Positions 17,801-23,800 of a DNA stretch of 64,000 nucleotides are shown here, piece after piece. Every line of letters starts with the position of its first letter. Position 1 is the stretch's first letter. The position numbers are program-made. Origin of the DNA: Escherichia coli (GTDB lineage Bacteria > Pseudomonadota > Gammaproteobacteria > Enterobacterales > Enterobacteriaceae); the NCBI RefSeq assembly GCF_003334305.1, contig NZ_QOWS01000004.1. One strand, given 5' to 3'.

Positions 17801-20800
17801 GCTGCATCTCCTGGCACTGTGTTTCCCAGAAAATTTCACCAAAAGCGCCATACGGTAAATCCCCTGCCGCCCGGAAGCGGCGGAACAAGCGTTCGGCATC
17901 ATCCTGCTCAACCAGTGCATTCAATAACTGCTGATTGATTTGATAACGACTAAGCCCTTCAAGAATAAATGGCTCGGTGTCGGGGATTTCGCTGTCTTCA
18001 GTACGGAAGTTCACCTGCAAACGCATCTGGAAGAACGCCCGCACCGGATGTGCCCAGAATCGTTGTAGCGTTTCCAGCGGCACGGTTTCCGGTAAGGTAA
18101 ACGGCAGCGGCTGAACAAATTCAGAATGTGCTTTACCAGCCTGGCTGGCCGCAGGTAGCCATTCACGAGCATAGCTTTGTCGTTCGCCTGGCTGGTAGTT
18201 TTGTGGATCAAACGGCATCCGGGTATGGAGGCAAGTAAGATGCGCTTTTACCCTTGCCTCGCTTTCATCACAGTTGAGCGCTTCATCGCCCGGTAGATAA
18301 TGACTTTGCCCGATGTAGTCGATCAGTTCCTGCACCAGTACCGACGGGAAACGTTCACTGTTATCCTGAATGGAGCGCCCGATATAGCTGATATAAAGTT
18401 TTTGTTGCGCGGAAATTAACGCTTCCAGGAACAGATAGCGGTCATCATCGCGACGGCTACGGTCGCCACGCTTCGGTTTCTGGCTCATCAGGTCAAAGCC
18501 CAATGGCGCAAGCTGACGTGGATAAACGCCGTCGTTCATTCCCAGCAGGCAAACCACTTTGAACGGAATTGAACGCATTGGCATCAGAGTACAAATGTTA
18601 ACCGGTCCGGCGAGAAAACGCTGGCTGATACGTTCTTGATCCAGGCGCTGTGCCAGTTCATCACGCAATAGTGACAGCGGCACCGCGTCGCCATACTGCG
18701 CACCTAAACCTTCGGCGATAATCGCCTGCCATTGTTGTTCGATCAGCGTCATCGCCGCTTCGGTTTCCGCATCCGGCAGGAAGAAGGCGTTGAGCATATC
18801 GCGACAAACCGGCAACCACTCTTCCAGCGGACGCTCCTGTGCCAGCCCGCGACGCCAGATGTTTAGCTGCATTAGCAGGGAAGCCAGATGCCCCACCAGT
18901 TCTGCAATTAAGCCGCTCGATTCATCATAAGGTAGAACCGATTGCCACTCGCCCTGCGCGCTCTCCATCGCGTAACCCAGCAACATGCGCGTCAGGCCAA
19001 ACCGCCAGGTGTGTTGACCGGTAGCGGGGAGTTCCAGCTCGCGAACGTTGTCGTCATCTATCCCCCAACGAATGCCGGATTCGTTGACCCACTGGCGTAA
19101 ATAACGCAGCCCTTCTTCGGTGATGTCAAACCGCGCCGCCAGCACCGGCACATCCAGCAGCGCCAGCACATCCTCTGACACAAAGCGACTGTCAGGCAGT
19201 GATAACAGGCTGATAAACGCTTCCAGTACCGGATGTGACTGCCGCGCACGACGGTCGGAAATGGCGTAAGGCAGGTAACGATCCGCAGGTGCGCTACCAA
19301 ACACAGCCTGAATAAACGGACTGTAGCTGTCGATATCAGCCACCATCACGATGATGTCGCGCGGAGTAAGTGTCGGGTCTTCTTCCAGCATCGCCAGCAG
19401 GCGATCGTGCAAAACTTCAACTTCACGCTGCGGGCTATGGCAAACGTGGAAGGTGATACTGCTATCCAGTGGATCAAGCGGGCGTTTGTTATCGCTACGG
19501 GAAAACTCTTCGATGTTCACACCAGCAACGGCACGGTTTTCCAGTTCCAGAATGTCAGACTGAATGTTATGCAGCAGGTTATCTGGCGTGACATCGACAA
19601 AGGCGTCCAGCTCCTGGCTGCTCTCCAGGTCAGAAAGGAGATAAATGTAGTCGCGCCCAAGCTTACCCCATGAAGCCAGCAGCGGGTTGCCGACATCCTG
19701 TTCACCATCGCTGTTAAAGAGCTGCCCGGCATTTTCGCTATCACGAAATAGCGGCAATTCGCGATCTTCAAAACTGTGTCGACGCTGACGGGTCAGCAGT
19801 TTCGCCAGATAAGCAGGATCTTTAATATCGCCCCAGTAATAACGGCAGGGGTTGGTAAACAGGAGATGGATTTCAATATGTTTACCCAGCGCCTGTAGCG
19901 CCTGGAGATAAACAGGCGGTAACGCGGAAATACCGCATATAAAGACGCGCGAAGGTAACCCCGGCGGGCAGGTCGTCGCGGACTCCAGCGTTTCGATAAA
20001 GCGCTGATAGAGATTGGCGCGGTGCCAGCGCGGTTGCCCGAGTTGATGGGTATATTCCACCAACGCCTTCCACAACGGCGCTTGCCAGGCCTGTGCTTCT
20101 CCCAGCCCTTCAACCAAATGTCCTGTTTCCCACTGTGCCAGCCAGTCCGGACGATAGACCAGATACTGGTCAAACAGGTCCGCCGCTTTTGAAGAAAGCT
20201 GGAACAGTTTTCGCTTGTCGCTATCGTCAGTCAGATAATGCCGCAACAGGGTAAAGTCTTCGCGATCCAGCAATTGCGGCAGCAGAGTCATCAGTTTCCA
20301 GCTCATGCTCTGTTTGTTAAAGGCGCTCTCTTTGGGGATTTCCGGTAACACCCGGACGAACATATCCCAGATAAAGCTCGCAGGCAGCGGAAAATCAATG
20401 TTTGCCGCAATACCAAACTTTTGCGACAGGGTCATTTGCAGCCACTGCGCCATACCGGTACTTTGCACCAGAATCATCTCTGGTTCGAAAGGATCGTCCA
20501 GCCGTTCGCGTTCGACAATAAACTCCATCAACGCTTCCAGCACGTCCAGACGATTGGAATGGTAGACCCTTAACATAGCGGCTCCTGACTACTGACGATT
20601 CGGGCAATGCAGGCGGGTCATCTCGCCTTCTCTGCCCCCGGGTGAAACTAGCGTAACGCTGATGCTGACACATCCCGCCTGCGATGTCTGCATTCGGTTG
20701 ACCTGCCAGTTGGCAGGTGGCGAAATCGCGCGCAGTTGCGTTTGCTGCCAGCCATGCCGCCAGAGCTGTTGGTACTGGTTTCTGCTGGCAAGACTGTTCA

Positions 20801-23800
20801 TTAATGTTCGCTGGAAACCCGATAACGCAGTGACAATCATCACCATCAACACCATCGCCAACATTACCTCCGGCAGGCTAAAGCCTTGTTGATTCTTCAG
20901 GGAAGCTGACATAACGCCCTCTCTTTCAGCGGACAAAAATCGCTCCAGCCGCGTGGCGAAAAAACAATGTTTCCATCAATGACTTCGCCTGTTCGCCACA
21001 ACAAAACGCCTTCATAATCGGCAATCAATAAGGCTTCATTATCTGCCAGTAAACGCAAACAAACCTGGGCATCGGTTCCAGCGTACTGCGAGCACTGAAC
21101 TGCTGGCTGCGTCTGCCAGGAGTGCATTTTTCCCCACGCCAGCGCCGACTGAACGATGGCCTGGCGGCGCAATGACTGACTTTCCATGCTCACGCGAGAG
21201 GCAAAACTGCGATCCTGTTGGCTCATTCCTTGTAATAGCAAGCTACCTAAAACCAGCAGCATCAGGACCAGAGCCAGTGACGAAACACCCTTTTCGCGGT
21301 TCACAGGTTGAATCCTGTCACGCTATAGCTGGCATTCACCACGGTTTGCGGTTCAGACTTACTGGCAGCACGCATATTAACCGTCAACACCGGCGAGAAG
21401 CCGCTGACATCCTGATGTACGACCTGAAAAGTGTCGATAATGATGGCATCCGGATTAGTGACTTTATCCCAGCCCTTACCTTCACAGGATGTCGCACCGC
21501 GTAGCGTTTCCAGCACATGCTCCTTCAGACGAAATCCAATCTGGTCAGACTCTTTTACCGGTTCGCGATCCCAGATACCGTTACTGTTCGCATCCCACTG
21601 CACAATGATACAGTCACCCTGTCCGACAATTTCCAGCCCTTCGCCGGTACAGCTGCCATGACAATAACCCGCCCTCTGGAGATGCTTCGCGACGGTAAAT
21701 ACCCGCAGCCAGATTTCATCTTCCAGCGCCAGCTTACGGGTGCTCGTTAAACTTTCACGCTGTAACGCAGGCAGAAAGCGTGCAGCCCCCAGCAACAATA
21801 CGCTACTGATCGCCATAGCAATCAACACTTCCAGCAGAGAAAAACCTTGCTCTTTTACAGGCATCCTTCTGTTTCTCCTTGCTGACAAAGCCGGAGTCTT
21901 CCCCACGGCGAAACCACCAGCCACCACTCGCCCGTTGAGTTTTTGAAGCGAATATGCCCGGCCCATGCGGTATTGCGCAGGCCAAAGAAAGCAAGCGAAG
22001 GTGTCAGGTCGCTCATTTCGACTTCGGGCCAGCGTGGCACAAAGACCAATGGTGAACTGCCATGACAGGTATTGGCCCCAGCAGCGGAACTCACAAGGCA
22101 CCATAACGTCCCCTCCCTGATAACGCTGATACTGTGGTCGCGGTTATGCCAGTTGGCATCTTCACGTAAATAGAGCAAATAGTCCCGCGCCTGGCTGGCG
22201 GTTTGCCATAGCCGTTGCGACTGCTGCCAGTATTGCCAGCCATAGAGTCCACTTGCGCTTAGCATGACCAAAATCAGCATCGCGACCAGCGTTTCAATCA
22301 GCGTATAACCACGTTGTGTTTTCATGCCGGCAGTATGGAGCGAGGAGAAAAAAAGACGAGGGCCAGTTTCTATTTCTTCGGCGCATCTTCCGGACTATTT
22401 ACGCCGTTGCAGGACGTTGCAAAATTTCGGGAAGGCGTCTCGAAGAATTTAACGGAGGGTAAAAAAACCGACGCACACTGGCGTCGGCTCTGGCAGGATG
22501 TTTCGTAATTAGATAGCCACCGGCGCTTTAATGCCCGGATGTGGATCGTAGCCTTCAATCTCAAAGTCTTCGAAACGGTAGTCGAAGATGGATTCGGGTT
22601 TACGTTTGATAATCAACTTCGGCAGCGGACGCGGTTCGCGGCTTAATTGCAGATGAGTTTGATCCATATGATTGCTGTACAGGTGCGTGTCGCCCCCCGT
22701 CCAGACAAAATCGCCCACTTCCAGATCACACTGCTGCGCCATCATATGCACCAGTAACGCGTAGCTGGCAATGTTAAACGGCAGGCCGAGGAAAACGTCA
22801 CAGGAGCGCTGATAAAGCTGGCAAGAGAGTTTGCCGTCTGCCACATAGAACTGGAAGAACGCATGGCACGGTGCCAGCGCCATTTTATCCAGTTCGCCTA
22901 CGTTCCACGCTGAAACAATAATGCGGCGCGAATCCGGGTCGTTTTTCAGCTGGTTCAGTACCGTAGTGATCTGGTCAATATGACGACCATCTGGCGTTGG
23001 CCAGGCGCGCCACTGTTTACCATACACTGGTCCGAGGTCGCCGTTTTCATCGGCCCATTCGTCCCAGATGGTGACATTGTTTTCGTGTAGATAAGCAATG
23101 TTAGTGTCGCCCTGCAGAAACCACAGCAGTTCGTGGATGATGGAACGCAGGTGGCAACGTTTAGTTGTCACCAGCGGGAATCCATCCTGCAGGTTAAAAC
23201 GCATCTGATGACCAAAAATGGAAAGCGTTCCGGTTCCGGTACGGTCGTTTTTCTGTGTGCCTTCGTCGAGCACTTTTTGCATCAGTTCTAAATACTGTTT
23301 CATGGTTCCTCAGGAAACGTGTTGCTGTGGGCTGCGACGATATGCCCAGACCATCATGATCACACCCGCGACAATCATCGGGATGGAAAGAATTTGCCCC
23401 ATGCTGATGTACTGCACCCAGGCACCGGTAAACTGCGCGTCGGGCTGGCGGAAAAACTCAACAATGATGCGAAACGCGCCGTAGCCAATCAGGAACAAGC
23501 CAGAGACAGCTCCCATTGGGCGCGGTTTACGAATATACAGGTTGAGGATAATAAACAGCACCACACCTTCCAGCAGCAGCTCGTAAAGCTGTGATGGGTG
23601 GCGCGGCAGCACACCGTAAGTGTCGAAAATGGATTGCCACTGCGGGTTGGTTTGCAGCAGCAAAATATCTTCTGTACGGGAGCCTGGGAACAGCATGGCA
23701 AACGGGAAGTTCGGGTCAACGCGGCCCCACAATTCACCGTTAATAAAGTTGCCCAGACGCCCGGCACCAAGACCAAACGGAATGAGTGGTGCGATAAAAT

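Follow-up and report, generated by a model that had tools for sequence, protein, structure and literature searches.

The ppdA-ppdB-ygdB-ppdC operon upstream of recC in Escherichia coli as a probable set of type IVa pilus minor pilins

Between thyA and recC, Escherichia coli carries four small genes with overlapping reading frames and pilin-like products. Which machine do these products serve, a type II secretion system or a type IV pilus, and how is their expression tied to that of their neighbours? We examined the locus in a stretch of 64,000 nucleotides of E. coli DNA (contig NZ_QOWS01000004.1, hereafter the window), in which an earlier note had described a cryptic four-gene pseudopilin operon.

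Gene order, overlaps and conservation

The open reading frames of the four genes were identical to the RefSeq calls in E. coli strain H15, the genome of which is 99.98% identical to the window strain over the window (about 0.02% difference). The features of the locus are as follows.

22464..22491, minus strand: intrinsic terminator of thyA (11-bp hairpin, then a U7 run)
22326..22463, minus strand: upstream (promoter/regulatory) region of ppdA, with candidate sites S1 and S2 and a TGCAAC repeat
21855-22325, minus strand: ppdA, ATG start, 156 aa
21301-21864, minus strand: ppdB, ATG start, 187 aa
20897-21304, minus strand: ygdB, GTG start, 135 aa
20589-20912, minus strand: ppdC, ATG start, 107 aa
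20577..20588, minus strand: ppdC-recC junction, TAG-TCAGGAG-N5-ATG
17208-20576, minus strand: recC (RecBCD gamma subunit), from open reading frame and annotation, the immediate downstream neighbour of ppdC

The gene names, their order and their position upstream of recC were as the earlier note had given them, according to both the open reading frames and the RefSeq annotation, and thyA and recC are the flanking genes. The serial overlaps, put there at 4 to 16 nt, measured 10 nt for ppdA/ppdB (ATGCCTGTAA), 4 nt for ppdB/ygdB (GTGA, with the GTG start of ygdB overlapping the ppdB stop) and 16 nt for ygdB/ppdC (ATGTCAGCTTCCCTGA), and a gap of 12 nt separates ppdC from recC. Short same-strand overlaps are common in the window (csdA/csdE, recD/recB, recB/ptrA, lplT/aas and yqeI/yqeJ), so those of the ppd genes are real and without statistical peculiarity; the notable part is that three follow one another and that they are conserved in other genera. 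The G+C content of the region (51-55%) matches that of its flanks, for which reason a genomic island was rejected. A search of the region against Rfam gave no RNA family, and PHROGs contained no family for any of PpdA, PpdB, YgdB or PpdC, so that no link to phages is indicated.

The locus was found in 5426/5426 complete E. coli genomes, and its DNA is 100% identical to several E. coli genomes. All four open reading frames are intact in the window, and the annotations of the listed genomes likewise give intact genes. The region is thus the core-genome operon ppdA-ppdB-ygdB-ppdC, which is already known. Its discovery value is correspondingly small, since every E. coli genome has it annotated and experiments have already employed it to supply the minor pilins of the PpdD pilus.

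The synteny comparison that had been proposed as a check covered seven other loci (L004-L010), reached via look-ups of YgdB relatives. Gene order and overlaps were kept in all of them: L004 and L007-L010 from other Enterobacteriaceae, L006 from Leminorella and L005 from Gilliamella. Linkage to recC was retained in most of the Enterobacterales loci compared, with recC adjacent in L004 and L007-L010, while the Gilliamella cluster lies away from recC. Orthologues at 25-60% protein identity still keep the glycine at -1, the glutamate at +5 and the paired cysteines.

Prepilin leaders, predicted folds and partner genes

All four products have a short, mostly basic leader with Gly at -1. Three combine it with the remaining hallmarks of a class III signal peptide, namely Phe, Tyr or Met at +1, Glu at +5 and a profile score above the cut-off: PpdA (MKTQRG-YTLIE, Tyr+1), PpdB (MPVKEQG-FSLLE, Phe+1) and PpdC (FSLPE after the glycine, Phe+1). 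Their scores against TIGR02532 were 24.3, 29.5 and 24.5 bits, respectively (cut-off 16.3 bits), and the E-values for Pfam N_methyl were 5e-7, 1e-8 and 2e-6. In the orthologue alignments of these three proteins Gly-1 and Glu+5 were invariant; G6, E11 and four cysteines were invariant in eight PpdA orthologues, and G7, F8 and E12 were invariant in the PpdB alignment. The leader motifs described in the earlier note were thus present on closer alignment.

YgdB departs from this pattern. Its leader, MNREKG-VSSLA, has Val at +1 and Ala at +5 and lacks Glu+5, and among its relatives Gly-1 occurs in 53/54 and Glu+5 in 0/54. The only domain match is DUF2509, with no match to N_methyl, and no pilin turned up when the PDB was searched with the YgdB sequence or profile. 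A pilin fold was nevertheless predicted, with a long hydrophobic N-terminal helix and an antiparallel beta-sheet, and the models of YgdB and PpdC were confident; the best structural neighbours of the predicted folds were the type II secretion minor pseudopilins GspI and GspK. By leader and predicted fold, YgdB is a non-canonical pilin-like subunit, which would make all four proteins pilin-like. The count of three prepilin-type products out of four therefore holds for the canonical motif and leaves out YgdB, which is still annotated as a DUF2509 family protein although its leader and predicted fold are those of a minor pilin lacking Glu5. YgdB is probably a tip subunit resembling PilX and GspK, both of which lack Glu5 and occupy the tip position in the priming complex (PMC7541494).

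Each of the four proteins had an NCBIfam match at equivalog level (PpdA to NF007800, 249.6 bits; PpdB to NF007848, 325.8 bits). With the PpdA profile, many type IV pilins were matched at their alpha1-N helix, among them PpdD of E. coli (6gv9), and FimU was matched weakly, while PpdA as a single sequence matched no structure; PpdA is probably a FimU/GspH-like member. The PpdB profile matched the Thermus type IV-like pilin TTHA1219 over residues 4-149 (E = 1e-4), and PpdB is probably PilW/GspJ-like. For PpdC, the domain of which is named T2SSppdC in Pfam, the model tentatively suggests a small GspI/PilV-like fold.

The four genes are contiguous and co-oriented and include one without Glu5, as in known minor-pilin sets. 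Annotation across the window shows no type II or type IV secretin or ATPase, as the earlier note had stated, and no PilY1-like adhesin gene. Not every type IV filament system has such a tip adhesin gene. The description as an orphan fits the window only: H15 encodes a major pilin, ATPase, platform, alignment complex and secretin, with ppdD-hofB-hofC (hofB annotated as gspE) at 4588393-4591420, 1.8 Mb from the ppd operon, and hofMNOPQ at 3342448-3345734, 0.57 Mb from it. The cognate ATPase, platform and secretin thus exist at a distance of 0.6-1.8 Mb, and the H15 annotation includes a prepilin peptidase gene at another site. PpdD pili have been assembled with the four genes as the source of minor pilins, alongside hofBC, hofMNOPQ and gspO (bioRxiv 10.1101/856302).

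Control signals and the junction with recC

The thyA terminator, which sets the ppd transcription unit apart from thyA, folds at -16.6 kcal/mol (z = -3.4), and its hairpin and T-run are kept in 6/6 aligned enterobacterial loci. Downstream of it the operon would have a control region of its own, and the regulatory assignments made there from sequence are tentative. The operon is described in PMC12616744, with reference to Sinha 2009 and Jaskolska & Gerdes 2015, as regulated by Sxy, and ppdA as its most strongly induced gene; the same article reports the same gene order in Enterobacteriaceae. A consensus search for CRP-S sites (TGCGA-N6-TCGCA, C6/G17) with at most 2 mismatches found none upstream of ppdA. 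A scan restricted to the region gave two candidates with 4-5/10 mismatches, the CRP-S-like site S1 at 22429-22444 (TTCGAGACGCCTTCCC) and S2 at 22377-22392. Of the local alignments to the ppdD promoter segment TTCTTCGTAACGCCTCGCAAATTT, that of S1 was the best, with a score of 23 compared to 16.3 +/- 2.4 for shuffled sequences, of which 10/500 reached 23, and another candidate aligns with better sites in relatives.

Between the two candidates lies a direct repeat, TGCAAC-N4-TGCAAC (22406-22421), which is kept in 5/6 loci. The ppdD promoter holds one CTGCAACG copy, the region upstream of hofM has no copy of the TGCAAC type, and the single occurrence of the conserved repeat motif in the window is at about chance frequency, for which reasons a regulon-wide element was rejected. 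On a smaller scale, the repeat in the ppdA promoter might be a regulator-binding site that has escaped notice.

A sigma-70 scan over 20400-22700 detected no promoter-like site, but the scan for such promoter- and terminator-like sites also missed the thyA terminator, which RNA folding confirmed. No Shine-Dalgarno sequence precedes ppdA (anti-SD duplex -1.7 kcal/mol). Internal sites, each embedded in the preceding gene, precede ppdB (AAGGAG, -8.5 kcal/mol), ygdB and ppdC. Given the overlaps and these internal sites, it is reasonable to infer that translation of the four genes is coupled, which would yield matched subunit amounts from one mRNA.

At the downstream end, the recC Shine-Dalgarno sequence immediately follows the ppdC stop codon (TAG-TCAGGAG-N5-ATG). 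This sequence and the 12-nt spacing are kept in 5/6 enterobacterial loci, and the junction showed neither a terminator-like site nor significant RNA structure (z = -0.5). The recC gene is probably at least partly co-transcribed with the ppd operon. Because the terminator-less junction is conserved across Enterobacteriaceae, we also considered whether recC might act as a functional fifth cistron, so that induction by Sxy and CRP would raise RecC and shift the RecBCD subunit balance during DNA uptake. We regard this extension as unlikely; if true, co-induction of recC would tie DNA uptake to DNA processing at the level of regulation, a connection so far noted in the literature only as co-localisation.

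Competing readings and comparison with known systems

Two other explanations of the operon were weighed. The genes could be spare paralogues of GspH, GspI, GspJ and GspK that serve the Gsp secreton and not a type IV pilus, as hinted by the Pfam name of the PpdC domain, by weak matches to the gspH and gspJ models and by GspI and GspK as nearest structural neighbours. However, the minor subunits of type II secretion systems and type IV pili share one fold, so the structural matches do not discriminate, and the profile matches are far below their cut-offs (gspH on PpdA, 18.7 bits against 80; gspJ on PpdB, 21.1 bits against 64.85). Moreover, the operon lies outside any gsp cluster, and no complete E. 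coli genome lacks it. In H15 the annotation between rpsJ and bfr shows only a 155-aa prepilin-peptidase open reading frame and no gsp genes, yet the ppd operon is intact. The published use of the four proteins with the Hof proteins (bioRxiv 10.1101/856302) likewise speaks against a secreton function, which we consider very unlikely. Because of the low GspH and GspJ scores and the presence of ppdD-hofBC and hofMNOPQ elsewhere in the genome, the products are better named type IVa pilus or competence minor pilins than type II secretion pseudopilins.

The remaining explanation, that the reading frames are an evolutionary relic without protein function, kept only since the DNA carries recC expression signals, draws on the lack of a Shine-Dalgarno sequence at ppdA, on the failure to see a consensus promoter, on the start of recC 12 nt past ppdC with no terminator in between, and on the reported silence of the related ppdD and yrfD operons in laboratory culture (PMC1635313). 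It is hard to reconcile with four reading frames intact in the window and in the listed genomes, with Gly-1, Glu+5 and paired cysteines retained in divergent orthologues and with confidently predicted pilin folds. In Gilliamella the cluster is kept apart from recC, so recC signals cannot explain its conservation, and we consider a relic to be highly improbable.

The operon thus very probably encodes four minor pilins of a chromosomal type IVa pilus or DNA-uptake machine with PpdD as the major pilin. From what is known of the family, each product would start as a prepilin in the inner membrane, its short leader closing with Gly, and GspO or PppA, prepilin peptidases with genes elsewhere, would be expected to cut after this residue. 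The hydrophobic N-terminal helices are expected to hold the four subunits together in a single complex, which would prime the polymerisation of PpdD on the HofC platform, driven by the HofB ATPase, and would then travel at the filament tip through the HofQ secretin; YgdB, lacking Glu+5 like PilX and GspK, would be the top subunit, with no need of a salt bridge to a subunit above. Judging from the literature, the operon would be silent unless activated by Sxy (TfoX) and cAMP-CRP, and the transcript probably continues into recC.

Compared with the type II secretion set GspH-GspI-GspJ-GspK (ETEC GspK-I-J complex, PDB 3ci0), the ppd genes lie outside any gsp operon, their profile scores are below the cut-off, and the large alpha-domain insertion seen in GspK is missing from YgdB (135 versus about 280 aligned-chain residues). 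The FimU-PilV-PilW-PilX set of Pseudomonas and Myxococcus likewise has its four minor pilin genes side by side; Glu5 is present in three of the products and absent from PilX, the counterpart of YgdB, and a priming and tip complex role has been proposed for the set (PMC7541494). The E. coli set differs in having no accompanying PilY1 or PilE gene, in its order (tentatively H-like, J-like, K-like, I-like), in its much smaller proteins (YgdB, 135 aa) and in showing no sequence-level match above the family cut-offs.

Haemophilus influenzae is naturally transformable, whereas E. coli is barely so. In H. influenzae, comNOPQ (pulG-HI0941) is a CRP-S/Sxy competence operon upstream of recC, and the literature treats the four prepilin-peptidase-dependent genes beside recC in E. 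coli as its Sxy-regulated orthologues (PMC1635313, PMC12616744). This orthology is based on synteny because BLAST linked none of the proteins (PMC1635313), and the region upstream of ppdA differs in having no evident clean CRP-S site. The closest counterpart is the ppdA-ppdB-ygdB-ppdC operon of E. coli K-12 and EHEC, which is identical with no substantive difference and the products of which are, in the passage of PMC7541494 that cites Luna Rico et al. 2019, the minor pilins of the PpdD/HcpA type IVa pilus.

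A recC-adjacent operon of four overlapping genes

The genes of the ppd operon, which encode minor pilins of the PpdD type IVa pilus, and their neighbours were placed as follows.

17208-20576: recC, starting 12 nt past the ppdC stop codon
20589-20912, minus strand: ppdC, ATG start, 107 aa
20897-21304, minus strand: ygdB, GTG start, 135 aa
21301-21864, minus strand: ppdB, ATG start, 187 aa
21855-22325, minus strand: ppdA, ATG start, 156 aa
22509-23303: thyA, the upstream neighbour of ppdA

For all four operon genes the exact reading frame boundaries are those of the RefSeq gene calls, and in the order ppdA, ppdB, ygdB, ppdC the genes overlap by 10, 4 (GTGA) and 16 nt. 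All 5426 complete E. coli genomes contained the 2.3-kb region (95-100% identity), whose G+C content is that of its flanks. These results therefore confirm exactly the serially overlapping operon upstream of recC described in an earlier note. Since short same-strand overlaps are frequent in the window (csdA/csdE, recD/recB, recB/ptrA, lplT/aas and yqeI/yqeJ), a single one is unremarkable, while three serial overlaps kept across genera are the mark of a tight operon.

Two longer products were considered, namely a 115-aa PpdC from a TTG codon eight codons upstream (20913-20936) and a PpdB extended into the 80 open codons that run out of frame inside ppdA (21865-22104); in both cases annotation and orthologue alignments favour the shorter start. 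Several database entries (P0011, P0023, P0036, P0041) are YgdB-PpdC fusions of 228-237 aa across the overlap (20897-20925). Set against the window DNA, the fused sequences probably reflect the deletion of 2 nt from GAGAGGG immediately ahead of the ppdC start, which takes away the invariant Cys132 of YgdB; either natural frameshifts or errors of assembly may account for them.

The earlier note had proposed a synteny comparison, and in loci obtained by exact look-ups of diverse YgdB relatives (L004-L010) the four genes were kept in order.

Table. Overlaps (ppdA/ppdB/ygdB/ppdC) and recC linkage in loci of YgdB relatives. The first five have the order lgt-thyA-ppdA-ppdB-ygdB-ppdC-recC.
L004: 13/1/16 nt; gap to recC 12 nt
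L007: 4/4/16 nt; gap to recC 12 nt
L008: 7/4/16 nt; gap to recC 12 nt
L009: 34/4/16 nt; gap to recC 12 nt
L010: 10/4/16 nt; gap to recC 31 nt
L006 (Leminorella): same four genes, 7/4/4 nt; recC not adjacent
L005 (Gilliamella apicola): four-gene cluster apart from thyA and recC, 7/32/8 nt; recC unlinked

The Leminorella locus has one extra gene between thyA and ppdA and another ahead of recC. The conserved unit is therefore the four-gene module, and its linkage to recC is common, not obligatory.

Translation signals and the region upstream of ppdA

22377-22392: S2, weak candidate CRP-S site
22406-22421, minus strand: direct repeat TGCAAC-N4-TGCAAC with a 10-bp period
22429-22444: S1, weak candidate CRP-S site
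22464-22491: terminator hairpin and U7, 3' of thyA

The thyA terminator is strong (-16.6 kcal/mol, z = -3.4) and kept in relatives, and the ppd genes thus form a unit of their own. Shine-Dalgarno pairing was estimated at -8.5 kcal/mol for ppdB, -4.1 for ygdB, -8.3 for ppdC and -6.6 for recC; the sites of the first three lie within the 3' end of the preceding gene and that of recC directly after the ppdC stop. This is the arrangement expected under translational coupling, which we infer for these genes. Before ppdA, the first gene, pairing was essentially absent (-1.7 kcal/mol) and no recognisable Shine-Dalgarno sequence was found (22326-22350), which fits the published replacement of its ribosome-binding site to improve translation (bioRxiv 10.1101/856302). 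Neither a terminator nor notable RNA structure was found at the ppdC-recC junction, and its conserved TAG-TCAGGAG-N5-ATG sequence suggests co-transcription of recC with the ppd genes.

According to PMC12616744, which cites Sinha 2009 and Jaskolska & Gerdes 2015, Sxy regulates this operon in E. coli and induces ppdA most strongly. No site with two or fewer mismatches to the CRP-S consensus (TGCGA-N6-TCGCA) was found upstream of ppdA, and by sequence alone its CRP-S site is not obvious. Of local matches to the CRP-binding segment of the ppdD promoter, S1 scored best (10 of 500 shuffles reached its score), and S2 aligns with better sites in relatives, such as TGCGTACCTGCACGCA in L008. The TGCAAC repeat, whose frequency in the window is about that of chance, is the best-conserved block between thyA and ppdA after the terminator (5/6 loci); the ppdD promoter carries one CTGCAACG copy, and no copy was found upstream of hofM.

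Partner genes of the pilus machine

As the earlier note had claimed, the genes annotated in the window include no cognate secretin or ATPase, of either type II or type IV. Our analysis adds that the genes of the cognate machine are scattered over other parts of the genome. In strain H15 (NZ_CP010178), which is 99.98% identical to this E. coli chromosomal window over essentially its whole length, the ppd operon is located at 2.77 Mb, hofMNOPQ at 3.34 Mb and ppdD-hofB-hofC at 4.59 Mb. Between rpsJ and bfr, the site of the gsp operon in E. coli K-12, H15 has a 155-aa "prepilin peptidase" reading frame (1758-2225 of the H15 stretch L013, outside the window) and no annotated gsp genes.

The sole secretion genes in the window belong to a decayed ETT2 type III island near its right end (~49400-62230; 7531-20339 of locus L002), which is unrelated to the pilin operon. 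It contains ygeG, ygeH (HilA-like) and intact sctJ, sctR, sctS and sctT; orgA/mxiK, sctI, the needle protein gene, prgH/eprH, sctU, sctQ and a partial spaN are frameshifted or interrupted, and its annotation lists neither a secretin nor an ATPase gene of a T3SS. The window also encodes the known small RNAs GcvB (1225-1430, 199 bits) and OmrA/OmrB (34250-34337 and 34453-34534, 96.6 and 86.1 bits). Where it has a single tRNA-Met (CAU) gene (5754-5830), H15 has three in tandem; the two differ there by 220 bp, which would fit a 110-bp repeat unit that has either collapsed or expanded.

Prepilin leaders and the place of YgdB

The prepilin N-terminal domain model TIGR02532 (curated cut-off 16.3 bits) matched PpdA, PpdB and PpdC at 24.3, 29.5 and 24.5 bits, and each also matched its own equivalog model and Pfam N_methyl. 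On closer alignment with orthologues down to ~25-30% identity, Gly-1 and Glu+5 around the predicted cleavage point were invariant and paired cysteines were kept in all three. DUF2509 was the sole family match of YgdB, so the count of three prepilin-type N-termini among four products is right for the canonical motif. Because the similarities of PpdA to GspH/FimU and of PpdB to GspJ/TTHA1219 are weak and sub-threshold, any one-to-one mapping onto H/I/J/K is tentative.

The operon finding is real, was correctly interpreted and is already known. The EHEC pilus was reportedly reconstituted with ppdA, ppdB, ygdB and ppdC by Luna Rico et al. in 2019. Four prepilin-peptidase-dependent genes adjoin recC in Pasteurellaceae and Enterobacteriaceae and have been taken for orthologues of pulG-HI0941, a competence operon of H. 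influenzae (Cameron & Redfield, PMC1635313), itself equated with comNOPQ, ppdAB-ygdB-ppdC having the same location and order (PMC12616744). The four genes have served as "minor pilins", together with hofBC, hofMNOPQ and gspO, in the assembly of PpdD-type pili (bioRxiv 10.1101/856302).

What our analysis adds here is that YgdB, a protein of predicted pilin fold, lacks Glu5 but has a conserved Gly-1. Few proteins belong to its family: 1.84 billion proteins yielded 114 representatives at 50% identity, with named members in Escherichia, Citrobacter, Pantoea, Mangrovibacter, Leminorella and Gilliamella/Orbaceae. Of 54 sequences, 53 have Gly at the position equivalent to -1 and none has Glu at +5; the family also shows conserved Gln/Glu at -3, a hydrophobic helix immediately past the Gly and four conserved cysteines. 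Neighbours of the predicted fold were S. sanguinis PilA (7.5), ETEC GspI (6.7), GspK (6.5), EpsI (6.4), XcpV (5.8) and XcpX (5.5). Work on Myxococcus and the T2SS is the source of the model of a priming and tip complex, and since GspK and PilX are known Glu5-less members of minor-pilin sets (PMC7541494), we read YgdB as a PilX/GspK-like subunit.
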